Virus genome (UHGV): UHGV-0211888
Length of the DNA: 50,103 nt
Reading direction: 5' to 3' (one strand)
From: a virus
The notes under the pieces were generated by a model. That model saw nothing but the letters and a program-made list of their open reading frames with translations, was not told the origin of the DNA and searched no databases. A program made the translations under genes and the position numbers. Positions within the stretch are counted from its first letter, which is position 1, and each line of letters opens with the position of its first letter. Below are positions 1 through 50,103 of this stretch, in pieces.

Positions 1-190
1 ATTTTCGCGATTTTAGGGGGTAAAAATGGCCTTTTTTGGCACTTTTTTGCCATTTTTCGCGATTTTCGGACTTGCCACTTTTTTGCCACTTTTGCCCTTT
101 TTGCCACTTTTTTTGAAAAACTTTTCAGAAATCTTCAAAAATTTTTAAGACGTTTTATAAAAGTGGCAAAAAGTGGCAATAAAATAACAG
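1..190. repeat. Iteron array, putative replication origin/control region, left part. About 8 direct TTGCCAC(T)n units at 27-114 with ~10-12 bp phasing. Two inverted GTGGCAA units at 162-180. ATTTTCGCGATTTT occurs twice (1-14, 52-65).
   Basis: Read directly from the sequence: cttgccacttttttgccacttttgccctttttgccactttttttg, then aagtggcaaaaagtggcaat. There is no ORF of 60 aa or more in 1-425. Phased T-tracts continue to about 240. Confidence 0.6.
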
Positions 191-390
191 TGATTTTGCG
201 GGTTATTTTTCGCCTATTTTTTCATCATTTTTGCAAAAAGAAAGAGTATATGTAATACTTACTATACCCTTTCTTGGGCATTTACTTGTCCTGTTTTTTG
301 GTTCTTCTTTCTTCTTGGATTTTCTTTGTTTTAAAGTCATCTAGAATCTCTCCAGCAGTTGAGAAAGCCATTACCGCACTTGTCAATAAT

Positions 391-423
391 AAAAAGCTAT
401 TGCTTAATTAACAACAGCTTTTT
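391..423 (-). terminator. Bidirectional intrinsic terminator-like hairpin immediately 3' of the last minus-strand gene.
   Basis: aaaaagctattg / cttaatta / acaacagcttttt gives an ~11-bp stem with one mismatch, flanked by A- and T-runs. The stop codon of ORF 426..701 lies just upstream. Confidence 0.5.
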
Positions 424-425
424 AT

Positions 426-701
426 TTATTGCATGATCAAACCTTTGCTATATAACTCCAACCAGATCTCTAGCATGTTCGCTTCATAGAAAGTACCGAT
501 AGCTTTATACAAATCAAAATAGTACATACACGTACCATCATTAAGTTCTCTGTCAAATAACTTCGAGACATTTAAATAAGTCTTAAAATCAAATCCCTTA
601 CACTTAACGACATCGATGATCATGCACTTTCCGATTGCATCGAGTTTATGTTTGCAATCATAAAAGCGATCTACTAGAATCATTATTTCATCATATTTCA
701 T
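426..701 (-). CDS. Hypothetical protein (91 aa), last gene of the leftward transcription unit.
   Basis: ORF with GGAGGA SD 8 nt upstream of the ATG at 701. Its 5' leader (711-746) is a 36-bp near-identical copy of the leader of gene 13564..13776. Confidence 0.5.
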   Translation of the reverse strand: MKYDEIMILVDRFYDCKHKLDAIGKCMIIDVVKCKGFDFKTYLNVSKLFDRELNDGTCMYYFDLYKAIGTFYEANMLEIWLELYSKGLIMQ

Positions 702-3211: not shown

Positions 3212-6200
3212 TTAAATAATAGTGTATATACGTGGATAGACTGGTTTGCCATCTACAATCTTCGGACCAATATATGGATCATCACTTACAAACCACTCAT
3301 AATTTCCAAATTGACTAATAGTATCAATTGCTTCATTAACGAGTGTTTCATAATATGACTTATCAATATACTGTTCCTCTGGAGTTCCAAGAACGTTTTC
3401 AGACTCGAGCCAACGATATCCTTTGGTTCCAGTTACTGCATTCATTCCCAGAGTTCCATCTTTCTTCTTTTGTTCACGATAGAGTATTCCTCCACCATGA
3501 CCAGGTTTGATAGGGCAGAACAATCCAACCCTACCAATAAACTTATAGTCATGTTCATCTAAAGCCTTACCTTCGTTCATATCCAAATACATTGCCGTCT
3601 TTACTTCTTTAGTTTCGCACATATCCTTAGCGGTTATCTGCTCATGACTAAAGCATTTTTTAAAGATATAAGGTATTTGGAATTGTAATCCGGTGGCTGT
3701 CCATGGTGTTTCATCCTTATGAGTATACTCTGGCGCATATTTTGCAATATAAGTAGAGTCATTTACAAGACACATACGATCATATGTTGCCTCATGTTCG
3801 AACGTATACCCATAACCTTGGGCAAATTTCATACAGTAATCGATGATCTCTGGTGTAGCATCCGGAATCTTAATTGAATCTGTCTTAATATGTGCTACCT
3901 TAAATCCTTTGGCAGCAACATTATCCTGAAGAGTCTTCATAAATAAGGCTCCTCTAAGAGCGACAATATTCATTTCATTAGATGATACACGGAATGGATT
4001 ATCGAAAGCTGCACTAGTCAGCCCATAAACTGAATTGATAGCAATTTTCAAAGCTTGAGACAATTTCTTAGCTCTAGTTGGATCATCCAAATATTTAGCC
4101 AGTTTGCCGTCAAACTCTTTCTTAACAACATCATATTCACCATGTTTGATATGAATACGAATATCAACTATCATAGCATACTTCTTCGTATAATCTCCGA
4201 AGAGATTCATAGCAATAATACTATGTGGATGCAACGATGCAACATCAAGTAATGCTACATTACCATACATTCCTGGTTCAGAATAAACATAACCACCAAA
4301 GCCTAAATCAATGCCTCGATACATATTATGCTTTTCATATTTATGAATTTCATCATTCCATTGTTTTACGAATTCATAGCCAGGAAAATCTTTTTTCAAT
4401 TTTTCATAGTTAGCTTCATAATTCAATTGAGGATGCTTTTCATTACCAAAAATAATCTTTGTAGTTAAACTATTTGTCGTATCGTTAACTGTCATACCTG
4501 CTAAGTCTGCTAGAATCTCACGAGCTTCAAAATCAGCTTTAGTGGCATTCCATACGGCCTCTGTACTGTTAACATCATTGTCACAATACTCAGCAACTTC
4601 TTGCCACTTATCCTCAGGTACAGGTTGGTCCCAAGGATAACCTAATTCCTGATGGTGAATACCTAGTTCAATTTCCCATTTCTTGAGAGATTGCTTTTTA
4701 GCTGCATAATCATAAATATCAGTATAAGATATATTATATGCCTCACCAAAGAATCCTTTACCATACATAATAATACTTTGAGAAAGTCTGAATAACTGCT
4801 CATTGGACCAGCCTAGACATCCTCTAGCGTACACAATATGGTTATCATATCGTCGGCAGTTAAAACCAACTAAACGATATTTGAATAGTGCTTGAATCTC
4901 TTCAGGCTTAGGATTTATCATCCTATTAACTACATTCGATCCTAACTTTTTGTAGTTGAGAAGGAATAAGTTAGGAAAGACTTCGACATCGAAGAACACA
5001 ATAGCATTCTCTGACTTCTCTGCATCAGATATACTGTCGCTTTTCCAATGTATTTTTGCTACTTTGTTAAGACAATAATCTGACTGATGCGTGCTAGCTG
5101 CAGCAAACGCCACAACTGCATTATGCAAATCACTAACATCATAAGTCATACCACTTTTGTAGCATGATTCAATAGAATCATAAATAAAGTCAACCGATGG
5201 CTTTGTATAACCACAGTATTCCTTATTGAGATTCCTAAGAATAAGTGTTCGCAATGCCTTCTCGTTTGCAACTGCCTTGAAATTTATCATTTCTTTTTTC
5301 TCCCTTAAAGGCAAACCGGAAGATATAGTTGCTATATCTTCGTCGTTACACTTAGTTAATTTACGTCTAAGCGCACTGTTGCCAGTAAATACTTTTACTT
5401 CTACATTATCTGAATATATTCTACTTAATTCAGCAGGATCACCTCCAGTATAAATATAGTGCAAATGTATGCCAGCTCCAGATTTGCTCAACTCGGCATA
5501 GGTCTTTGGCCATTTACTGGCCTCTTCAAGATTTTTCTTAAATGACTTTTTGCCGTCTTCTCCTTTGATATCAAAATCTATGACAATAAGCTTTTCAGGA
5601 ACTTTAACATAATGAAGTTTCCTAGTATCCAGATCTTTTAATGCAGTTCTTACATTAGACCATTTCATTCCAGGAACTTCCTCTTCTGTTGCATACTGAG
5701 CTGGACAATCCTTACAATAATCATCTAGTCTAGAATGTTGCTCCTTAAAAACTATCTTGTCAGAAGTTGTATCAACGACAGTCGGCTTCTGATCTTCATT
5801 CAAAATATCGGTTTTAAAGCCAATATAGTATGATCTTATCCAAACTCCATCAACCAGAACTCTCTCTTTGTATTCTTTGAAATAGTTTTTTAACTCATTC
5901 TTAAATATACGCATCGACATGGGATATGGGACTTTTGCATTGTCGCAATAAGTTTTATACATCTCCCATCCCTGCTTAAGAGAGACACTATCTTGCTGCT
6001 GGAATGTATCATAACTATCCTCTATGAAGTTATAGAAATCATTTGATTCACCCATCATTAAAGTTGGTTTATAGTTTTGATAATAATTAGGATTTTTCAA
6101 ATATATTTCTTTGCATTTATATGCAATAGCTCCATATTCAAATTTAATCCTATTCATTAACTCATCATATTTTGTCAAACTTATTCTATTACCTGTAGGT

Positions 6201-7090
6201 TGCACATCGATCAAACGTCTTAAAATACCTGACTTAGCATCAGTTATTTTAACTGGTTTATTTGTACCCATAAATAAGAAAGTATTGAACTTCATACTGT
6301 AAATAGACTTATGTTTCTCATTAACAGTCATCTTTTCATGAGATACCAAGCTATTTATAGTTGTGTTTCTTTCTATTCTAGACAAATCACCATCCTGACT
6401 AATAGCAACTAAAGGATTGGTTTTCAACTGTTCCAAAGCAAATGTAGCTGTAGATGAACCGAGCGATTCCGCATCAAATACTGAACAATAGCCATCAAAC
6501 ATACTCTGAATAATATCCAGAATAGTTGATTTACCAGTTCCAGGTGGACCATAGAACACAATAAACTTTTGCGTCTTTTTAGACGCTCCAGTTACGATTG
6601 CACCTATAGCCCACTCGAACTTATGGCGTTGCTCATCAGTATATAATTCCGAAACAAGTTCATCATAAGCCTCAGTGCTTCCAGATTCAAGAGGATATGG
6701 TAACTTATGACTGGAATAATCTTCTTTAGCAGTTTTCTGATTAGAAAATACTAATTCATTATCAAGTGGTTTAAAGTTATCACGCATCTGCTTTTGGCAA
6801 TAACGATGCCAAATGTCGATACTGCCTGACTCTGCATCCCACATATGCAGAATATGTACCCTACTATCTGCAAAACGATCCTTGTTTTTTTCTGCAAATG
6901 CATCTAATTCTGCGTCAACAGCTTTTACAAGATCTTGTTCAGATGTAGACCACGTATTCTCTTTTTCATTCCAGAAAGCATAAAAGTCGCTTCCTCTTAT
7001 CATAAGGTCTTTTGAAATTCCAATGACGAACTTAGGATAGATCTCGATTTCACCCTTTCGGGTTCTATAAGATACTATCAAGAAGTCCAT
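3212..7090 (-). CDS. Fused SF3 helicase (P4-alpha/D5-like P-loop) - AEP primase (PrimPol-like) - family B DNA polymerase with 3'-5' exonuclease, 1292 aa.
   Basis: Helicase: Walker A FYGPPGTGKST; B-like VAISQDGD; motif C FMGTN. AEP primase: motif I LIVIDFDIKG; motif II SGAGIHLHY. Exonuclease: Exo I FFDVEVF; Exo II GFNCRRYDNH; Exo III YCDNDVNS. PolB: motif A LDVASLHPHSII; motif B KIAINSVYG; motif C HIKTDSI (phi29-like DTDSI). Confidence 0.85.
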   Translation of the reverse strand: MDFLIVSYRTRKGEIEIYPKFVIGISKDLMIRGSDFYAFWNEKENTWSTSEQDLVKAVDAELDAFAEKNKDRFADSRVHILHMWDAESGSIDIWHRYCQKQMRDNFKPLDNELVFSNQKTAKEDYSSHKLPYPLESGSTEAYDELVSELYTDEQRHKFEWAIGAIVTGASKKTQKFIVFYGPPGTGKSTILDIIQSMFDGYCSVFDAESLGSSTATFALEQLKTNPLVAISQDGDLSRIERNTTINSLVSHEKMTVNEKHKSIYSMKFNTFLFMGTNKPVKITDAKSGILRRLIDVQPTGNRISLTKYDELMNRIKFEYGAIAYKCKEIYLKNPNYYQNYKPTLMMGESNDFYNFIEDSYDTFQQQDSVSLKQGWEMYKTYCDNAKVPYPMSMRIFKNELKNYFKEYKERVLVDGVWIRSYYIGFKTDILNEDQKPTVVDTTSDKIVFKEQHSRLDDYCKDCPAQYATEEEVPGMKWSNVRTALKDLDTRKLHYVKVPEKLIVIDFDIKGEDGKKSFKKNLEEASKWPKTYAELSKSGAGIHLHYIYTGGDPAELSRIYSDNVEVKVFTGNSALRRKLTKCNDEDIATISSGLPLREKKEMINFKAVANEKALRTLILRNLNKEYCGYTKPSVDFIYDSIESCYKSGMTYDVSDLHNAVVAFAAASTHQSDYCLNKVAKIHWKSDSISDAEKSENAIVFFDVEVFPNLFLLNYKKLGSNVVNRMINPKPEEIQALFKYRLVGFNCRRYDNHIVYARGCLGWSNEQLFRLSQSIIMYGKGFFGEAYNISYTDIYDYAAKKQSLKKWEIELGIHHQELGYPWDQPVPEDKWQEVAEYCDNDVNSTEAVWNATKADFEAREILADLAGMTVNDTTNSLTTKIIFGNEKHPQLNYEANYEKLKKDFPGYEFVKQWNDEIHKYEKHNMYRGIDLGFGGYVYSEPGMYGNVALLDVASLHPHSIIAMNLFGDYTKKYAMIVDIRIHIKHGEYDVVKKEFDGKLAKYLDDPTRAKKLSQALKIAINSVYGLTSAAFDNPFRVSSNEMNIVALRGALFMKTLQDNVAAKGFKVAHIKTDSIKIPDATPEIIDYCMKFAQGYGYTFEHEATYDRMCLVNDSTYIAKYAPEYTHKDETPWTATGLQFQIPYIFKKCFSHEQITAKDMCETKEVKTAMYLDMNEGKALDEHDYKFIGRVGLFCPIKPGHGGGILYREQKKKDGTLGMNAVTGTKGYRWLESENVLGTPEEQYIDKSYYETLVNEAIDTISQFGNYEWFVSDDPYIGPKIVDGKPVYPRIYTII

Positions 7091-8520: not shown

Positions 8521-9519
8521 TTAATCTTCTCTCTTTCTTAAACTCGTAATAAATGTACGTTTACCTCTATCACCAGTAAGAATATCGCCATCAACATTGA
8601 AATCAAGCCAAACATTACGTTCGCCTCTCATCATATCGATAGCTTTTTGAGTATAATTACCAGTATGACGATCTCTTAAACCAATACTAATGTAATTATC
8701 TCCATTAGGATTCTTAGGATCATAGATCCATCCAACCACATGTGAAGCTTGCAATTGCTCATCAGAGAGAGATCCTTCAGGAATTCCTAACTCCTTATAG
8801 ACGTCATACAGGAACATATATTTCTTTGCAGCCAATTGCTGATTAAGTCCGCTCTCTAGCATTTCAAGCCATGCTTTGTTTCTAGGTCCATCTGGTTCCC
8901 AACCATAGCAAGAGGCATCCCATAATACTGCATATGGAGATCCAGATTGATACTTTTTAACTTTCTTTTTGATGGCTTGTTTGTTACCATTTTCATCTAC
9001 AATTTCTTGTTTCTCGGTAACAATACCATCGTACAAATCTTGCTCCGCTTCTTTTCCAAGCTTGCCAGCTACTCTTGAACGATACGCTTTGTAGGCAGTA
9101 TCAAGAGCTGCATATGCAGAACTTAATGCGACAACTCTACCTTGCATAATCTTATGACTTCCAACAAAACATGCAATTGCTGCAGCATAAAGAATTACAG
9201 ATGGTGCATATGTCTTAGCTAATTTAAGACCTGTTTTAGCATAAACCTTATTAAGTTCTTTCTTATTCTCAGGAATACTAACCTCACCATTTCTGACAAG
9301 ATTATCGTCATTCATTTCCGACTTAAGCTTTTGAATTCTCTCTTTAGCTTCAGGCAAATACTTCTCTGCTTTTTTCGTCTCGACAACTGCTAACACAACA
9401 GCAGCTGCAGAAGAAATAACTCCACCAATGATTAACAAAGTTGGAGAATTTTGTTTAAGCCAATATCTAGTTTTACCTATAGTATTCTGAAAACCAGTTT
9501 TAATACTATTAAAATTCAT
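8521..9519 (-). CDS. Membrane protein, paralog family B (332 aa).
   Basis: Shares its architecture with 10567..11319 and 11316..12176: a TM segment, KKAEK, a coiled coil, a second hydrophobic helix A.P..I...AA, then a variable C-terminal domain. Confidence 0.5.
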   Translation of the reverse strand: MNFNSIKTGFQNTIGKTRYWLKQNSPTLLIIGGVISSAAAVVLAVVETKKAEKYLPEAKERIQKLKSEMNDDNLVRNGEVSIPENKKELNKVYAKTGLKLAKTYAPSVILYAAAIACFVGSHKIMQGRVVALSSAYAALDTAYKAYRSRVAGKLGKEAEQDLYDGIVTEKQEIVDENGNKQAIKKKVKKYQSGSPYAVLWDASCYGWEPDGPRNKAWLEMLESGLNQQLAAKKYMFLYDVYKELGIPEGSLSDEQLQASHVVGWIYDPKNPNGDNYISIGLRDRHTGNYTQKAIDMMRGERNVWLDFNVDGDILTGDRGKRTFITSLRKRED

Positions 9520-9535
9520 CTTTTATATCCTTTCG

Positions 9536-10243
9536 TTATTGTTGTGTCAATGGAACAACTTTCGGCAAGTTAATAATATAACCGCCTGGGACAGCATTGA
9601 CTTCCATCCCTGCTAAATCATACCAACCATATTTCTGATCCGTATACTGACCATTTTGTCCTATTAGATCATAGAAATCATTCACCGAAACACTACCATA
9701 TCTTGCAATATTATCTTGCAATGCTATAGCGACTGTTTCAGCTTCACCTCTACTACCAAATACAAAATCACGTACTTGGTATATGGTATTAACAACTGGT
9801 CTATTATAACCAGGTTGCTGCATATTGATAGGAACACTAGGCTGATATAAACTTGATCTATATTGCGAATTATAATTTATAATTCCAGCATTAGATCTAT
9901 TGCCTCCAACTGATGCTCCGTTCTTACCATATAGAATAAAATCAATCGAATATTTAACCGCACCAGAGATCATATCCTTAATTTTAGGTAATATGACTTC
10001 TGATACAACAAAAGCCCCAACCGAATCAGCATCAGTAGACAAGATTTTTCCTTTAAAATTAAAGAATTTCTTTTTCTTAACTTCTGTCACGTTAGTCGTG
10101 ACGGGCTGAATCACTTTCTTATCTTGTTGAGGCGGTTGTTTCTCAAATGAGTTTTTGGGAAAATCCTGCATATATAACCTCTCTATTTTCAAAAATAAAA
10201 GGAAGGGCCATTGTTTATTCAACGATAACCCTTTCAATAACAT
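9536..10243 (-). CDS. Hypothetical protein, paralog family A (235 aa).
   Basis: Its C-terminus QKYGWYDLAGMEVNAVPGGYIINLPK matches the EQYGWKDLNGVKIEKVKTGYKIIMPE C-terminus of 12190..12969. Confidence 0.45.
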   Translation of the reverse strand: MLLKGLSLNKQWPFLLFLKIERLYMQDFPKNSFEKQPPQQDKKVIQPVTTNVTEVKKKKFFNFKGKILSTDADSVGAFVVSEVILPKIKDMISGAVKYSIDFILYGKNGASVGGNRSNAGIINYNSQYRSSLYQPSVPINMQQPGYNRPVVNTIYQVRDFVFGSRGEAETVAIALQDNIARYGSVSVNDFYDLIGQNGQYTDQKYGWYDLAGMEVNAVPGGYIINLPKVVPLTQQ

Positions 10244-10566: not shown

Positions 10567-11319
10567 CTACATATTCGACAATTCTTCGGCACCTCTTGAA
10601 TACTGAATAACACCTATTGGATTGTCATCGTTGTCAAGAGCAGCATCTAATTCCACATTGATTAGACCTTTAGCTCCTGATTTATAGACAGACCATCCAA
10701 CATTATCACCGTAATCAACAGGATCGGCTCCGATTGCTTGAAGCCAGTCATTTAATGTAATAGTATCTTCTCCACCAATAGCTCGAGCATTAAGTTCATT
10801 AGCCATTTTCTGGATTAAAGTCCAATCACTTTGAATAATTTGTCCAGTAAGACTCTCTTTAAATCTTATCTGTGCTTTCCCAGTGATAATTACATTATTT
10901 GCCTTAGAATTGTCTTTCTTATTAACAGCTTCTTGAATCTGCTTTTCTTTTTCTTCTCCAATGAGCTCCTTCGTCTTTTCCTGATATTCCTGCAAGGCCG
11001 TCTCAGTCACCGTATATGCAGCAGCTAATGCTGCATTACGTTTGGCGGATACTTTATTTCCTGCTACCACACACGTTACAGCACTGGCAATTATAACTGT
11101 TGGCGCAATAGCCTCTTTCCAAACACATTTAATTGTCTCTTTGACTGGAAGTTTATCTACTTTGAGTTCTTCTTTACGTTTTTGGATATTTTTATAACCT
11201 CGAATACTTCCTCTTATTATCAGAGGAATCGATCCAATGAAACCTGCTACTCCCATCCACATGAGAATATCAGGTTCATTTTTCACTACCCAAGGTTTGA
11301 TTGTTGTTAATGGATTCAT
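10567..11319 (-). CDS. Membrane protein, paralog family B (250 aa).
   Basis: N-terminal TM, K/E-rich linker, and the AALAAAYTVTE helix shared with the 332-aa and 286-aa proteins. Confidence 0.5.
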   Translation of the reverse strand: MNPLTTIKPWVVKNEPDILMWMGVAGFIGSIPLIIRGSIRGYKNIQKRKEELKVDKLPVKETIKCVWKEAIAPTVIIASAVTCVVAGNKVSAKRNAALAAAYTVTETALQEYQEKTKELIGEEKEKQIQEAVNKKDNSKANNVIITGKAQIRFKESLTGQIIQSDWTLIQKMANELNARAIGGEDTITLNDWLQAIGADPVDYGDNVGWSVYKSGAKGLINVELDAALDNDDNPIGVIQYSRGAEELSNM

Positions 11320-12176
11320 TTTGCTGCCTCCTTGGTCTTAATTTCTACAGGTTTGAAAGTAGATTTTTCCTTATCAAATGGCAAGAAATCTCCTCCGTCT
11401 TCTGAAGCATCCTGTATCGGTTCCTCGTCAAAGGATATAACCTTATATTCATGACCTTCAGCATCTTTTGTAGGAGTTAAATTCATGTGAATCCATTCAA
11501 CTCCAGTGGTGTCATCCAAATATTCTTTTGTCCAACCCCAGCAATAATCTGCTTTACTGATAGTCTTTTCATTTATAATATCTGCTTTAGCATCGCGTAA
11601 CATATCATATATTAAACAGAAATATGCAGTTTTATTATTCTGATCAACAGTATGGATACGTTGATTCATATCAGCATATGCTCTCATCAGATCTTCAGGT
11701 TTTGCTCTAAAGAAACCGATGCGTTCGATCCAATATAGATCAGTACCGCCGTCCAAGTCCGGATCGATTAAGTCAATACCAGATTGTTTTGCATCATCTT
11801 TAGATATACTTTGAAGAATGCTCTTGTGCGTATCAATACCGAGCATGTCTTTCACCTTATCAGAATACTTATAATATCCTTGCTGAAGCACTCCTGCACA
11901 GGCAAGTAGTGATACTTCTGCCTTTTTATTCAGAATAGCACTTCCGATGATAGAGGCGATAGTAATACCGCCAATCACGCCAGAGCGAATATAATAAGGA
12001 GCTTCAGCTTTCACCAACTCCATTTTTGTAGGATTCGGCTTGTTCTTGATGAGCTCTTCTCTTTTCTTCTCAGCTTTCTTACTGTCTTTGACTGCAAAAT
12101 ATGCAGTTGCTACTGTTCCAACAGAACTTAAAAGTGCCAAACCAACTGACACAATATTTTTCGTTTTAATATCCAT
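11316..12176 (-). CDS. Membrane protein, paralog family B (286 aa).
   Basis: TM LALLSSVGTVATAYFAV, then KKAEKKREE, then a second hydrophobic helix. Confidence 0.5.
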   Translation of the reverse strand: MDIKTKNIVSVGLALLSSVGTVATAYFAVKDSKKAEKKREELIKNKPNPTKMELVKAEAPYYIRSGVIGGITIASIIGSAILNKKAEVSLLACAGVLQQGYYKYSDKVKDMLGIDTHKSILQSISKDDAKQSGIDLIDPDLDGGTDLYWIERIGFFRAKPEDLMRAYADMNQRIHTVDQNNKTAYFCLIYDMLRDAKADIINEKTISKADYCWGWTKEYLDDTTGVEWIHMNLTPTKDAEGHEYKVISFDEEPIQDASEDGGDFLPFDKEKSTFKPVEIKTKEAAK

Positions 12177-12189
12177 CTTTTAATCCTTT

Positions 12190-12969
12190 CTAATTTAATG
12201 ATATTGCTTCTGGCATAATAATTTTATAGCCGGTCTTGACCTTTTCGATTTTTACGCCATTAAGATCTTTCCAACCATATTGTTCATACTTGGAATTACT
12301 ATAGTCAATTATCTTGGTACAATTAGTACTAGAAGCGGCGAGACTAAAGTAATATTTTACCGATAATTGACCTTTTCTACTAATTTCTTGCTTGGATATC
12401 TGAAGAATGTTATTAACCGTCTCCTTATTAGAAAATATAAAATCATATATTTTTAATATATCTCTCATGAAATTGAAGTGAATAGGTCTTGTAGAAAATT
12501 TAAGCATATATGGTCCATTAATATTTACATGACTTGAATGCAAGACTCTAATCTGAAAATGATCATTCCGAATCCAACCATATTCGTCATCTTCTTGCGA
12601 TGTCGTGCGCCCGCAAATATTATAACACTCACCGCAAGTTATAAACCCACTCTTCTTGATCGTATCTTTAATAATACCCTTAGCCGTATAGGCATCACTC
12701 CGATTCTTAAAAAACAGATGTCTGAAATGGTATTCGGGTTTATCAACCTCTTCGCAATCATCCTTCGGTTCTTCATGACGATAAGCTTCGCAAGTAATGA
12801 TAAGATGTCTCTCTTCGTCAGGATTACCTTTAGAGACCAAGTAGTACTTGAATGCAGTCGGATCTGCATCATTATCGACACGCTCCCCGACGACTTGATA
12901 CTTGAACGGCATCATTGATAACATCATCAAAGCTTCACCAACCTCAACATTTCGTTTTAACCAATTCAT
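12190..12969 (-). CDS. Hypothetical Cys-cluster protein, paralog family A (probable start at 12969; the track ORF extends to 12999).
   Basis: The ATG at 12967-12969 is preceded by AAAGGAGGAAATAAAACA. This 26-nt RBS/start block is identical to 14815-14840. CxxC-like pairs are ITCEAY...C and CGEC...C. Confidence 0.45.
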   Translation of the reverse strand: MNWLKRNVEVGEALMMLSMMPFKYQVVGERVDNDADPTAFKYYLVSKGNPDEERHLIITCEAYRHEEPKDDCEEVDKPEYHFRHLFFKNRSDAYTAKGIIKDTIKKSGFITCGECYNICGRTTSQEDDEYGWIRNDHFQIRVLHSSHVNINGPYMLKFSTRPIHFNFMRDILKIYDFIFSNKETVNNILQISKQEISRKGQLSVKYYFSLAASSTNCTKIIDYSNSKYEQYGWKDLNGVKIEKVKTGYKIIMPEAISLN

Positions 12970-13082
12970 TGTTTTATTTCCTCCTTTGATTAAAATCAAG
13001 AGAACTATATTTTTATAATTCTCATAATGTAAACTGTTTATTTTGCGAATTAACCAAATCTGACTCTAATAATAAATTCAGT

Positions 13083-45130: not shown

Positions 45131-45454
45131 TTCTGTTCTCCTTTAAAGTAGATTAAATATAATTTTTATATAGTTTTGGTTAACTATTTGGAGGAGCGTA
45201 CTAACTTTTTCCATAGTTTCTTGACCCGATACCTAAGGAGAAAGCAGGAGGAAGATAAAACAATAAATCTTTCATGAACTAGTAGTACGCCCCTCCAAAC
45301 AGCTAACCCTCCGAGCAAAAACATTTATAAAAAATATCCCGCCGGAGAATTTTTTCAGAGCCACGCGATTCGAGGGGGTGCACATATTGCTATACCCTCC
45401 CCCGGGTCTGAAAAATGCTGTTTGAGGTCTATTTTATTGATATTTTAGGCCATT
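45131..45454. promoter_or_regulatory. GC-rich structured intergenic region. A 17-bp inverted repeat (45187-45203 / 45283-45299, one mismatch) has a 79-nt loop. A second imperfect stem is TTTTTCAGA...TCTGAAAAA (45350-45415), with an internal GGGGG/CCCCC pair.
   Basis: tttggaggagcgtacta pairs with tagtacgcccctccaaa. Local GC is far above the rest of the genome. The region sits between the early block and the packaging block. Confidence 0.55.
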
Positions 45455-45718: not shown

Positions 45719-48700
45719 TTACTCCTTTCCTGATAAGTATTTAGTAACAGTAGAAGGCGACACATTCAATGTATCGGCTATTTCTGCTGTTGTCAGACCA
45801 CTATTAGCCATAGCTTTCATACGTGAAATCTTAGATGGGCTGAGAACAGTAGTAGTTCTAGGTAAGGCTAACTGTTTAAGCCTTTGATCATCTACATATT
45901 TCATGATATTTTTAAGACGGGCAGTTGATATTGCACCGGCTTGTATGGCAGCCCATTCATTATCTGTAATTGATATTGGGTGTCTTTTTGCACCTACTTT
46001 TCTTCTTGCTATCATAAGCTCCTTTTGGGAAAGCTTTTGATATTCTTCGTTTGTCATATTAGGATCTGCTTGCCTCTTGGCTTTAAGATTAGTCTGAGCT
46101 ATTACTTGAGCCTGACGCTCTCTAGGGGCATTTAACTCTGACTGATTAAGCTTGTATTTTAATTGTTGCACCTCTGTTGCATATTTTTGGGCAGCATCTC
46201 TAGAATAGGGAATGTCTTCTACAGCCATACTCTCTTTTCTAGATTTAAGAGCCAAAGCTTTCAAATAATTTGCATAATCGGCGTATAATTCCTCTTGAGG
46301 AGTGCCAGAACTTAATGCATGGGCATCTTTCACGGCATTCATCTTAGGAATATTCATCATAGCTTTCTTAGAAATAATCTTCTTAGGATCTGTGATCTGA
46401 ACATACTCTTTTGTCTCAGGATCTTTGTAATAGTATTTACCATCTTGAGCAAAAGCAGATACAGTTTTGGTCTTATTAGTACCATTTACCTTAATCTGTG
46501 TCTGGTAATATGTCCTGTTTGTGTCATGATACAATAACTCTCCGGTTTTAGGATCAGTATATCTTGTACCAACACCCTTCTTACCTTTAAACATCTCACC
46601 AGTAGATCTGTCAATATATGTTTCATTCTTCTCATCAACTACGTCAAGCTTCTTACCATTATCTTTACGATAGAATTCACCTGGTTTTCTTTCAGGAATA
46701 GCATAATCTGCACTTGCTTGAGAAATAAGTGTCGAAGCACCGCCAAGTTTTTCAGTTCCTGATAAAGGATCGTAATGAGATTGATATTTGGCTTTTAATT
46801 GAGAAATATTGTTGTCAATATATGACTGCTTATAGTCGTACTTGTGCTTTACTGCATCAATAACAACCATTGAATGTCTAACCGCACGAGCAATTTCATC
46901 ATCAGTTGCACCTCTGAGTGTCATATCAGTAATAAGATTCGAAATCTGTCCCATTTCCTTTTGTTTGGAACCTTCGGACATGATTTTATACTCTTTACCA
47001 TTACGATATGCATGCTCAGTTCCATCTTTATCAAATTTAATTTCAGATGGACCATATGAATCGCCAGGATCAAAATTTTCGAGACCTTTAAGAGCCTTAG
47101 AAGAATTGACTCTAGTATTATCACTTAATGGAATGCAAATAACAGTATCACCATCGAAGTCCGCACCAGACATTTTGGCTGCGGCTTTAGCAGTAATACC
47201 AATAGCATCGCTAGGGGTTTTACCAAGATGCTCTTGAGCTTCTTTGTTGTCATTGTTCACAGTTAAGACAGGAATCTCAAAAGTACCACCATGAGGGAAA
47301 CGAATAAGAGCAACTTGTCTACCATTAGGTAAATCTGGATTGTAACATTCATCATCCTTTAACGATGGAACAGGAAGAATAACCTTATACTTTTGACCAG
47401 AAAATGCAGCAGCCTTTAAACTAACAGAAGCGGCATCACAATCATCGGCATAAGATTCAAGCAAATGACGTTTAATAGTAGGATTAGTCAATGACATAAT
47501 CTCATCATATTCATCTTGTTTGTCTTTCTCAGATTGGAGTATTTGCTTCTTAATAGTAGATTTTGGTTGTTTAGATAGAAATTGAGAAGGAAGTTCATGC
47601 GACCAATCTCCCCAATCACCTTCATCAGATCTTTTGTTAATTGCTGACAAGGATTGTTTATTGCCTGTCATCGGATCAGTATATTTACCATTAGGATCAT
47701 CGTAATATGATTGACCACCGACTTCCTTGATTGCAGAACCGAAAGGATTGTCAGGATCTTTCTTAATAGCTTTAAGAACACCGCCATCGGAAGTAGGCTT
47801 TCCATTAGCATCAAATGCCTCCAAAGGAGTTCCGGTCTTCTTACTAGTATTAAATCTGATGTCAACACCTTTAGGAAGGTCATCTGAATAAACAGCCATA
47901 CCTTTAAGGTAATGAGTTCCATCGACCATAATACGAACCTGAGAATATGCAGATCCACCAAGACTTAAATCTTTAACTCCTGGACGAATCTCAATAAGAC
48001 CATCTCTTTCAGCACCGCCTTGATCACTATATCTGACAGCAACTCGCTTAGAAGATATAGAAGTCGGATACCTGAAAGAAGGTTCAAGTGTTTGCCCACC
48101 ATCTCTAGTGGTGAAGTCTTCAACGCCATGAATATCCTCCAATTTATAAGCATCAGAATATGGAACTCCAGGAGGACAAAGTACTTTAACAGTTGTAAAA
48201 TTTCCTTTATTAGTAGCTTGTTCTACTCTAATTGAATATACATTGTAGCCTTTTTCTTTGAGAATCTCAATAGCAGAATTAAGTTTCTCTCTTGAAACTC
48301 CTAAATATTTCTCAGATTGGGTTCCAACATCGATCATACCTTTTTCTTTTACAATAGTTTCGAGATTATCGGCAACTTTCTGAGTTTTACTAAGACGATT
48401 CTGTCTTTCAGAGTTTAATGCACTCCTGACGGAAGATTCGTTAATACCCAACTTTCTACCGATTTCTGTAGGAGTAAGACCATCTTTCTGCAAAGATTTA
48501 ATATCTGCTAGAATGAGTTTTCTTCTTTCTTCAGTTGCGATAGAACGCTTTGCTCTAAATTGAGTTGTACTCATTCCAAGAGCATTAGCAATCTCAACTT
48601 CGGACATTCCTTTAGACTTCATTTCATCAATACGGCTAAGAAAGTCACCGGTTCTTTGATAAGGATCATCACCAGAACCCCAAGGATAACGTCCTGAATG

Positions 48701-48814
48701 TCTTGGAGTACCATAATGTTTTACATCTTCATCTGATTCTTTATCCTCACCAAGAAAAATATCTGGAGAGGGTTTTTCTAAATTGATTTTTCCGTTTCGT
48801 TTTTGCTCGTTCAT
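45719..48814 (-). CDS. Two-barrel (DPBB) polymerase homologous to the multisubunit RNAP beta-prime/beta catalytic core (YonO-like single-subunit RNAP) fused to sigma-region-4-like HTH domains, 1031 aa.
   Basis: aa 503-556 LIRFPHGGTFEIPVL...AKAAAKMSGADFDGDTVICIPL (nt ~47147-47314). Compare beta-prime NRAPTLHRLGIQAFEPVL...AAYNADFDGDQMAVHVPL. aa 740-752 EMFKGKKGVGTRY (nt ~46571-46585); compare beta RHGNKGVVSRI. HTHs: MSEVEIANALGMSTTQFR, LTPTEIGRKLGINESSVRSAL, LTTAEIADTLNVSPSTVTKYL. Confidence 0.55.
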   Translation of the reverse strand: MNEQKRNGKINLEKPSPDIFLGEDKESDEDVKHYGTPRHSGRYPWGSGDDPYQRTGDFLSRIDEMKSKGMSEVEIANALGMSTTQFRAKRSIATEERRKLILADIKSLQKDGLTPTEIGRKLGINESSVRSALNSERQNRLSKTQKVADNLETIVKEKGMIDVGTQSEKYLGVSREKLNSAIEILKEKGYNVYSIRVEQATNKGNFTTVKVLCPPGVPYSDAYKLEDIHGVEDFTTRDGGQTLEPSFRYPTSISSKRVAVRYSDQGGAERDGLIEIRPGVKDLSLGGSAYSQVRIMVDGTHYLKGMAVYSDDLPKGVDIRFNTSKKTGTPLEAFDANGKPTSDGGVLKAIKKDPDNPFGSAIKEVGGQSYYDDPNGKYTDPMTGNKQSLSAINKRSDEGDWGDWSHELPSQFLSKQPKSTIKKQILQSEKDKQDEYDEIMSLTNPTIKRHLLESYADDCDAASVSLKAAAFSGQKYKVILPVPSLKDDECYNPDLPNGRQVALIRFPHGGTFEIPVLTVNNDNKEAQEHLGKTPSDAIGITAKAAAKMSGADFDGDTVICIPLSDNTRVNSSKALKGLENFDPGDSYGPSEIKFDKDGTEHAYRNGKEYKIMSEGSKQKEMGQISNLITDMTLRGATDDEIARAVRHSMVVIDAVKHKYDYKQSYIDNNISQLKAKYQSHYDPLSGTEKLGGASTLISQASADYAIPERKPGEFYRKDNGKKLDVVDEKNETYIDRSTGEMFKGKKGVGTRYTDPKTGELLYHDTNRTYYQTQIKVNGTNKTKTVSAFAQDGKYYYKDPETKEYVQITDPKKIISKKAMMNIPKMNAVKDAHALSSGTPQEELYADYANYLKALALKSRKESMAVEDIPYSRDAAQKYATEVQQLKYKLNQSELNAPRERQAQVIAQTNLKAKRQADPNMTNEEYQKLSQKELMIARRKVGAKRHPISITDNEWAAIQAGAISTARLKNIMKYVDDQRLKQLALPRTTTVLSPSKISRMKAMANSGLTTAEIADTLNVSPSTVTKYLSGKE

Positions 48815-49486: not shown

Positions 49487-49813
49487 CTAGTTCATGAAAT
49501 AGCAGGTCATCTCGTCTAATACTAATTTTTCGTTTTCAGGAAAAATAAAAGAAGAAAATCCCATGTTCGAAAATAGACTAATGTAATAGTCTTGATTCGG
49601 TTGATGTGGTTCATCTTGTCCTCTTTTACATTCAAGCATAGCCCATTTCTGCCCAAATAAGATAAGCAGATCAGGAATACCTTGAATATAGTTTGGATCA
49701 TTTTTTAGGACGACTACCCCTGGTAGACGCCTTTCAATCTGTTTAATTAAATGTGCTTGGAATTGATTTTCGCGTCTCACCTTGAGTAGCCCTCCTAAAG
49801 AATGAAAAAACAA
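49487..49813 (-). CDS. VRR-NUC domain nuclease (108 aa; the track start is TTG, and the true start may be internal).
   Basis: GIPDLLILFGQKWAMLECK matches the VRR-NUC PD..E.K core. This is the first gene after the control region. Confidence 0.6.
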   Translation of the reverse strand: MFFHSLGGLLKVRRENQFQAHLIKQIERRLPGVVVLKNDPNYIQGIPDLLILFGQKWAMLECKRGQDEPHQPNQDYYISLFSNMGFSSFIFPENEKLVLDEMTCYFMN

Positions 49814-49989
49814 AAAGGATAAGATTATCTTCTCCTCATAAAAGGCGTTGTTTCCATCGCGAAAAGAATATTAGTATATGCATTACTTATTATACTATTT
49901 TTAAAGTTAATCAATAAATTTAGTTCATTGTTTATTGTGCTATTTTTAGAAATTTTTGCATCTCTATTTTATCTGTGAAAAACAGTCAA

Positions 49990-50103
<114 letters not shown>

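Follow-up and report, generated by a model that had tools for sequence, protein, structure and literature searches.

In staphylococcal pathogenicity islands (SaPIs), the replication origin consists of six to twelve short iterons around an A+T-rich centre. Each side has two or more of them, oriented oppositely to those of the other side, and the proposed reader of these iterons is the winged-helix domain of a self-loading helicase of superfamily 3 (SF3), Rep or PriRep, without a separate loader (PMC9371898). The iteron sequence varies between the elements, and the helicase of SaPI5, PriRep5, has a primase fused to it. For these origins in general, loading of two hexamers is assumed, at either side of the A+T region (PMC9371898). 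Here we describe a stretch of virus DNA of 50,103 nt, UHGV-0211888 (the whole of which is called the window below), a phage genome of ~50 kb with ~35% G+C in which all substantial open reading frames (ORFs) lie on the minus strand. Its two ends join into one non-coding control region with two inverted-repeat modules, and the SaPI origin is, by analogy, the closest known design to these modules. We consider the chance that the joined ends carry the replication origin of the phage, in the form of two tandem modules, to be somewhat better than even.

Two modules in the joined control region

According to the ORF list, the control region is made up of positions 1-425, which end at the stop codon of a 91-aa ORF (426-701, minus strand), and of positions 49814-50103, upstream of an endonuclease-like gene (49487-49813, minus strand). 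Joined, these parts measure 715 nt (425 + 290). The initial annotation had taken them for one non-coding region of ~700 bp split between the two ends, and this was confirmed by L098, an independent contig of 30.8 kb from a 95%-identical strain in a different sample (Logan SRR34389145). On this contig the helicase gene, both modules, the sequence at the junction and the early genes form one uninterrupted stretch, with no gap at the junction; the window ends are contiguous. The genes at the left end encode a 1292-aa replicase (3212-7090), a single-strand-annealing protein, an SF2 helicase (1242-2498) and two small ORFs, and those at the right end encode the endonuclease-like protein, an exonuclease and a 1031-aa single-subunit RNA polymerase with helix-turn-helix (HTH) domains. 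Because the relatives have the order p181, replicase, annealing protein, helicase, a gap of 0.07-5 kb, endonuclease, exonuclease and RNA polymerase on one strand, the right-end genes of the window directly follow its left-end genes.

Exact copies of TTGCCAC occur on the plus strand at 72, 83 and 101, and exact copies of the inverted form GTGGCAA at 163, 173, 50070 and 50078. Seven of the ten exact matches to these words in the whole window fall in the 354 nt at its ends, where the local base composition leads one to expect 0.014 matches (binomial P for at least seven of ten, 1e-13). Copies with one mismatch are found at 36 (TTGGCAC), 47 (TTGCCAT), 50000 (TTGCCAT) and 50008 (TTGCCGC), and a further variant, TTGCCCT, is located at 92. 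The initial annotation had counted about eight direct heptamers at 27-114 with a phasing of ~10-12 bp. The clustering is real, but there are fewer units, three exact copies and three variants, and their actual spacings are 11, 25, 11, 9 and 9 nt. The inverted GTGGCAA pair that it placed at 162-180 corresponds to the exact copies at 163 and 173, and the same heptamers were correctly seen at the right end (the two variants at 50000 and 50008 and the two exact GTGGCAA copies).

The arrangement of these sites into two modules with 55-nt spacers and a run of 24 T (T24) had not been described there. The inverted-repeat modules are separate, at 72-179 and 50000-50084, and the spacer is exactly 55 nt long in both. 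A site has the core GGCAA or TTGCC, usually within GTGGCAA, and at least two sites lie on each side of the spacer, with the two sides in opposite directions. In module 1, which was flagged by the inverted-repeat detector, arm A (72-107) comprises the three TTGCCAC copies and TTGCCCT, with a T-run after each; the spacer (108-162), our proposed unwinding element, is 84% A+T; and arm B (163-179) holds two GTGGCAA copies inverted relative to arm A, the repeat pairs I4, I6, I11 and I14 being 100% complementary. In module 2, arm A (50000-50014) consists of TTGCCAT and TTGCCGC, which have the canonical form at the equivalent sites of L098; the spacer (50015-50069) is 98% A+T and contains the T24 run at 50027-50050; and arm B (50070-50084) is again a GTGGCAA pair (inverted pair I7). 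The modules are ~190 nt apart, with two extra degenerate half-sites (36-53; TTGGCAC and TTGCCAT) between them, and are diverged paralogues, not identical copies. When the whole window was scanned for inverted arms of 14 nt separated by 40-80 nt with an A+T content of 80% or more, the two modules were the only places found.

Individual sites in L098 vary between GTGGCA, GCGGCA and ATGGCA, and therefore the invariant core is GGCA(A) preceded by an A-run. Next to module 1 there is a second kind of repeat, the ATTTTCGCGATTTT box, with copies at 1-17 and 53-69 (family D4). The initial annotation had noticed this duplication, and the two copies are 94% identical (2-17 versus 54-69). Each has a TCGCGA core, at 5-10 and 57-62. 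The TCGCGA palindrome has three copies only in the window (at 5, 57 and 49857), all within the control region, two being in the ATTTTCGCGATTTT boxes and one in a conserved early motif (49857-49862) considered below. This distribution suggests that TCGCGA may be a second, separate protein-binding word.

Three further contigs, L097, L099 and L100, were located like L098 through exact-protein look-ups. L097, an ENA contig of 50,146 nt that is 99.9% identical over the stretch read, crosses the window junction and stops in a homopolymer, and the Logan contigs L099 and L100 begin at the homopolymer. L097, L098 and L099 all have the T24 run, and the alignment shows about two more residues in it for L098. 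Because the run is real and assemblies break there, the window was cut there and not at a physical genome end. The two ends of the window share no terminal repeat, and no genome terminus (cos, pac or direct terminal repeat) was found at the junction, which is contiguous in L098. The cos site or physical end of this phage is probably at ~45.33-45.41 kb, where a GC-rich stretch, CAGACCCGGGGGAGGGT...CCCCCTCGAATCGCGTGGCTCTGAAAAAATTCTCCGGCGGG (45330-45410, minus reading), can be aligned with the right end of the record of Lactococcus phage 1706 joined to its left end; the record end falls within that alignment at about the point between ...CGTGG and CTCTG. Such a site is compatible with an internal origin ~4.7 kb off. 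Physical ends near 45.2 kb had been named beforehand as an argument against an origin at the junction, but a cos-like site at ~45.36 kb can coexist with it. Contigs of such phages thus tend to be cut at the probable origin, since the T24 run inside the site breaks assemblies.

The module in related phages

About 25 relatives, with replicases 50-70% identical to that of the window, keep the layout, and their spacers are mostly 57-65 nt long, near 60 nt. Read in gene orientation, their tandem half-sites, two or three in number, are followed by a T-run and the spacer, which is very rich in A+T; after an A-run come the inverted half-sites, again two or three in tandem. Further copies of the same half-site are present in the 100-300 nt upstream. 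A strict detector of two sites plus two sites gave 12 matches in the real sequence (1.05 Mb) and none after shuffling that preserved the composition. The half-site changes from phage to phage: it is TGCCAC in the window, and TGCCCAC, TGGCCAC, TGTCAAA, TATGACAC, TGTGACA, TGTTACAC, TGTGCCAC or TTTTACCG in others. Within each genome, both arms and the extra copies always agree in their half-site, that is, the arms change together. The gap between the helicase and endonuclease genes of many relatives also has clusters of AAAGTGGGCA, AAAGTGGCCAA or similar words, which belong to the motif family of AAAGTGGCAA in the window.

The position of the module is variable within limits, being among the replication genes in 25 of 26 genomes. 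In 17 genomes it has the same place as in the window, with the helicase gene on one side and the endonuclease-like gene on the other. In another seven it occupies the interval between p181 and the replicase, where it ends 10-40 nt before the replicase ribosome-binding site, and the helicase-to-endonuclease gap of these genomes is only ~100 nt. In one genome (L073) it directly follows the replicase, before the helicase. The exception is phage 1706, in which a related element, with CTTCGGGA repeats and ATCACGAAA/TTTCGTGAT arms around an A+T stretch, is found just upstream of the RNA polymerase gene, at ~51.6-52.05 kb of NC_010576.

A small hairpin with compensatory changes in its stem (e.g. AAACCC...GGGTTT or AAACGTTGAAATTTCAACGTTT) lies between the upstream repeats and the main inverted repeat in L004, L034, L037, L039, L045, L051, L053, L058 and L077. 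The window has no clear equivalent of it.

By its replicase protein, the nearest cultured relative of the window phage is Faecalibacterium phage Oengus, with 60% identity. More distant relatives over the full length of the replicase are phages of Arthrobacter, Gordonia, Streptomyces, Microbacterium and Curtobacterium and the Lactococcus phages 1706 and P078, and at least 600 contigs in IMG/VR matched the helicase query. At the DNA level, no near-identical or close phage in the phage collection searched matched the window. The paired GTGGCAA pattern retrieved 15 loci from IMG/VR, none related to the window, and no repeat cluster was seen in the ~22 kb examined around the replicase genes of FP_oengus, Arthrobacter phage Circum and MT835485. 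A search for plasmid relatives of the helicase part gave none that was useful. IME-EF1 was considered as a relative and rejected; it has PolA and DnaB, and the Enterococcus matches cover the PolB part only.

A candidate reader and the rival explanations

Because the half-sites differ among related phages and the arms always match, the protein that reads them should be phage-encoded. On sequence comparison, the pattern points to such a protein, and not to a conserved host factor or to simple hairpin pairing. By analogy with the origins described above, the best candidate is the 1292-aa replicase (3212-7090, minus strand), which we propose as both the reader and the engine of the origin. Profile searches, Foldseek and motif reading gave its domain order as an N-terminal beta-rich domain, an SF3 helicase (~aa 160-330), a winged-helix-like domain (~350-425), an AEP primase (~500-620) and a family-B polymerase (PolB; ~690-1260). 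The primase motifs DFDIKG and SGAGIHLHY can be read from the translation. An initiator or SF3 helicase had been postulated in the initial annotation, and the genome does encode an SF3 helicase, of the D5/E5/P4 type (Pfam DUF5906, 7.8e-14; phrog_4210), although its match to TIGR01613 (E 1.5e-15, 56.9 bits) is below the curated P4-family cut-off of 108.7 bits. The domain is homologous to TIGR01613, and the protein is not a member of that family by the curated threshold. Foldseek matched the replicase to MPXV E5, VACV D5 and ASFV PrimPol at ~3e-9, including an entry of a head-to-head double hexamer, and also to NrS-1. The order of the domains is unusual in that the primase comes after the helicase, opposite to P4 alpha and poxvirus D5, in which the primase precedes it.

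The model of aa 335-432 has a winged-helix topology (pLDDT 77). Its fold matches in the PDB are weak (E 0.14-1.2), with RFX as the best (E 0.14), followed by winged helices of ORC/Cdc6 and, at rank 26, the P4 origin-binding domain 1ka8_A (E 1.2, TM 0.30). The first half of the putative recognition helix varies among the phages (SMR, SQR, SKR, RYK, KFK), roughly tracking the half-site class. A sequence search of the PDB with the replicase gave no matches, including no similarity to SaPI Rep. Profile scans recognized no other initiator-like or DNA-binding protein among the neighbouring genes. We also considered the HTH domains of the RNA polymerase (phrog_4291; 45719-48814, minus strand), which has two N-terminal HTH motifs and a C-terminal one resembling sigma region 4. 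These were rejected as readers because their three recognition helices are near-invariant across phages with unrelated half-sites; for example, VSVSTVNKY is found both in a TGCCCAC phage and in a TTTTACCG phage. The homologue of this polymerase in phage 1706 is annotated as an 'RNA-dependent RNA polymerase'.

In the mechanism that we propose, a phage-encoded protein would recognize the arms, most likely through the winged-helix-like domain of the replicase, which comes next after its SF3 helicase. Rings of the helicase, loaded at either side of the spacer, would melt it, and the primase and PolB domains of the same polypeptide would then begin synthesis. Three points in this scheme are our inference: the reading of the sites by the replicase and not by a different phage protein, the melting of the spacer and the start of replication at the modules. 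Because the layout is conserved, the arms co-vary, the module is near the replication genes and the replicase has an SF3 helicase, comparison has strengthened the case for an origin, which is the best-supported explanation of the modules and which we favour, with some reserve, as an unproven candidate.

Several observations weigh against an origin. In phage 1706 the module adjoins the upstream side of the RNA polymerase gene, away from the replicase. The orientation of the module relative to the genes is constant in every genome, with a gene start after it, and a TATATA element is found close to the downstream arm in many relatives; both facts would also fit transcription control. The duplex-stability scan found the spacers to be unstable, yet not uniquely so in the genome, the spacer of module 2 being among the four least stable windows of 40-60 nt. 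The initial annotation had recommended looking for a switch in GC skew, but none was seen: GC and AT skew carry no origin signal, the GC skew being uniformly negative and its course monotonic, because every gene is on one strand. The winged-helix assignment depends on the weak fold matches and on a sub-threshold Pox_D5 hit (20.1 versus 21.4 bits). The co-variation of helix and half-site is no stronger than shared ancestry predicts and vanishes after correction for relatedness, and the window and L001 have nearly the same recognition helix but different half-sites. In the literature searched, there were no functional data for any member of this phage group and no origin was described for any member of the family.

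The main rival is a transcription-control element, in which a phage regulator would bind operator arrays flanking a promoter and switch the downstream operon (endonuclease, exonuclease and RNA polymerase, or the replicase in other relatives). Repeat arrays that flank a core promoter are known from parC of R1, and we count them in favour of this explanation. The module is always intergenic and before a gene start, in a constant orientation; TATATA(A) is located 10-25 nt before the downstream arm in many relatives; the region in the window comes after a terminator and before the early genes; and the module of phage 1706 is directly upstream of the RNA polymerase gene. However, neither spacer of the window has a TATA-like element, one of them being mostly T24, and scans of the sigma-70 type were at chance level in the spacers of the window, L011, L046, L053 and phage 1706. 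Among -35/-10 pairs in the region, only 9-of-12 matches were found (7 against 5.0 expected, and 1 against 3.4), none on the coding strand within either spacer. Moreover, the HTH helices of the RNA polymerase are invariant while the half-sites vary, tandem same-direction sites at a variable spacing of 7-12 nt are atypical of operators of dimeric repressors, and no adjacent or conserved regulator gene was found in profile scans. We regard transcription control as a rather unlikely explanation, although transcription may also activate the origin, which would give the region a dual role.

There is also a better candidate for the promoter. A conserved motif, TTCGCG...CTTTTATGAGGAGA, lies between the modules and the first early gene, always directly before the endonuclease gene and separable from the moving module. 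In the window it is the single-copy motif TTCGCGATGGAAACAACGCCTTTTATGAGGAGAAG (49829-49863, minus strand), just upstream of the endonuclease-like gene and outside the inverted-repeat modules, a candidate early promoter or leader. The TTCGCGATGGAAACAACGCCTTTTATGAGGAGAAG motif is found upstream of the homologous gene in L004, L006, L011 and L044 and also in L098-L100, and relatives with only ~50% protein identity still have its 3' half unchanged. The motif may serve the phage's own RNA polymerase, whose HTH helices are equally conserved, as a promoter.

It is less probable still that the sites are an array for some other phage DNA-binding protein, with a centromere-like, partition or genome-organizing, packaging-recognition or decoy function, and that replication starts elsewhere. 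The evidence reveals a conserved site for a phage-encoded reader without naming that reader, and the genome has several conserved proteins without known function, both of which leave room for this idea. But the proteins scanned included no genes of the ParA, ParB or ParM type, and the terminase genes and the cos-like site are ~5-7 kb away, at 42.2-45.4 kb. For a centromere or pac site it is not obvious what purpose an A+T spacer of conserved length in the centre would have, and the module travels with the replication genes and not with the packaging genes.

We think it very improbable that the half-sites are sites for host factors, namely DnaA boxes or hexamers like a sigma -35 element, that recruit the host machinery. 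They look similar to TTGACA (KTGRCA) and have CCAC in common with the DnaA box TTATCCACA, but this is resemblance only, and half-sites that differ as strongly among related phages as TTTTACCG, TATGACAC and CTTCGGGA cannot be reconciled with one conserved host protein. DnaA boxes (TTATCCACA with at most one mismatch) numbered 18 in the window against 18.1 expected, with none in 1-425 or 49814-50103, and a DnaA-dependent origin was rejected because the region has no such box. The weakest explanation, an assembly or terminal-repeat artefact of contig closing, which the initial annotation had itself raised, could draw on the cut only 19 nt from module 2 and on L097 and two Logan contigs that end in the adjacent homopolymer, but it is refuted by L098, which comes from a different sample and has both modules and the junction inside the contig, and it does not agree with the divergence of the modules or with homologous modules in dozens of unrelated assemblies and in the cultured phage 1706.

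Other elements surround the modules. A terminator-like hairpin at 388-426 (minus strand; inverted repeat I8, then a T-run on that strand) closes the replication operon before the control region. Two copies of a 22-nt box flank the modules, GTATATGTAATACTTACTATAC at 246-267 and GTATATGCATTACTTATTATAC at 49874-49895; their minus strands hold TATAGT and TATAAT, respectively. The first copy is kept in L098, in which a 35-nt deletion (equivalent to window 49868-49902) has removed the second, TAGTATAAT-containing box and left both modules in place. Because it is absent there by deletion, the GTATATGCATTACTTATTATAC box is dispensable in that strain. Relative to the window, ~250 nt have also been inserted or replaced in L098 (2803-3053), in the interval from the operon terminator to the control region. 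A 174-aa gene called across module 1 in L098 is spurious, an F/L-rich translation of the T-rich repeats. A small plus-strand ORF (MSNGHTMNENNCTNQ..., 832-961) with an AGGAGG ribosome-binding site, called as a 58-aa gene in L098, is the sole plausible plus-strand gene of the window and is convergent with the helicase operon. In a row upstream of the replicase are three DUF6353 paralogues (8521-9519, 10567-11319 and 11316-12176, minus strand) and two phrog_4079 paralogues (9536-10243 and 12190-12999, minus strand). Rfam and tRNA scans gave nothing.

Comparison with known origins

Lambda-type and plasmid iteron origins have iterons at roughly helical spacing beside an A+T-rich unwinding element (reviewed in PMC4980987 and PMC5043065). 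The window modules are like those origins (O protein, RepA/pi) in that the iterons adjoin an A+T-rich element. However, the lambda-type and plasmid origins are one-sided, with iterons in a single orientation, and depend on host DnaB and DnaA, whereas the window region is without DnaA boxes.

The initial annotation took the symmetric iteron blocks for the architecture of an origin and gave P4 alpha and papillomavirus E1 as its models. The inverted arms and the A+T spacer are upheld by their conservation in ~25 relatives, but the E1 layout does not apply, and SaPI is closer. The modules share with the origins of papillomavirus E1 and polyomavirus large-T the inverted arrays of short sites and an SF3 helicase that would be initiator and helicase at once, for which loading as a double hexamer is expected. 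In the core origins of E1 and large-T, the binding sites are central and an A+T tract or palindrome flanks them. In the window it is the sites that flank and the A+T spacer that lies between them, so the analogy of mechanism holds but the layout is opposite.

The P4 system is similar in another respect. The ori and crr of P4 are two separate cis regions with short repeats, both direct and inverted. The window also has an SF3 helicase of the kind found in P4 alpha primase-helicase, with its TIGR01613 score below the family cut-off as given above. The P4 origin is read by a winged-helix domain (PDB 1KA8), to which the fold match of the window domain is not significant (E 1.2). Furthermore, the iteron sequence is unrelated to that of P4, and the modules of the window are 190 nt apart and not kilobases.

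With SaPI the modules have in common the opposed repeats that flank an A+T centre, a repeat sequence that changes between elements and an encoded SF3 helicase. At least two repeats per side, in opposite orientation around an A+T centre, are present in both modules (three or four plus two sites in module 1, two plus two in module 2). There are differences as well. The SaPI origin lies immediately downstream of rep, whereas in the window three further genes separate the replicase from the modules, which lie 3.0 kb beyond its stop codon on the downstream side; seven relatives have the module directly upstream of the replicase start, and it is directly downstream in L073 only. The window helicase is fused also to a family-B polymerase, and the winged-helix-like domain is internal in the replicase but C-terminal in SaPI Rep. 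Finally, the window holds two complete modules in tandem.

We put forward a broader idea only tentatively, and do not consider it likely: that a complete replicon may need two components only, a module of ~100 bp, with two inverted pairs of short sites and ~55-60 bp of A+T spacer between them, and one polypeptide of 1292 aa that is origin reader, SF3 helicase, primase and PolB in one. The module would be a portable cassette that hops between intergenic slots in a very large phage family, abundant in gut and soil, and its site specificity would drift in step with the replicase. If it were true that one protein and one short site suffice, the pair could serve as a compact orthogonal replicon. 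The family is large and includes cultured phages of Faecalibacterium, Lactococcus, Arthrobacter, Gordonia and Streptomyces. A site of ~100 bp with a clear comparative signature offers a target for learning how an all-in-one helicase-primase-polymerase initiates replication, and the differing half-sites of the relatives are natural variants for mapping protein-DNA recognition. The proposed design, an origin of iterons and an A+T spacer for a self-loading SF3 helicase, is a known one; of value for comparison are the portable module, the drifting specificity and the conserved length of the spacer.

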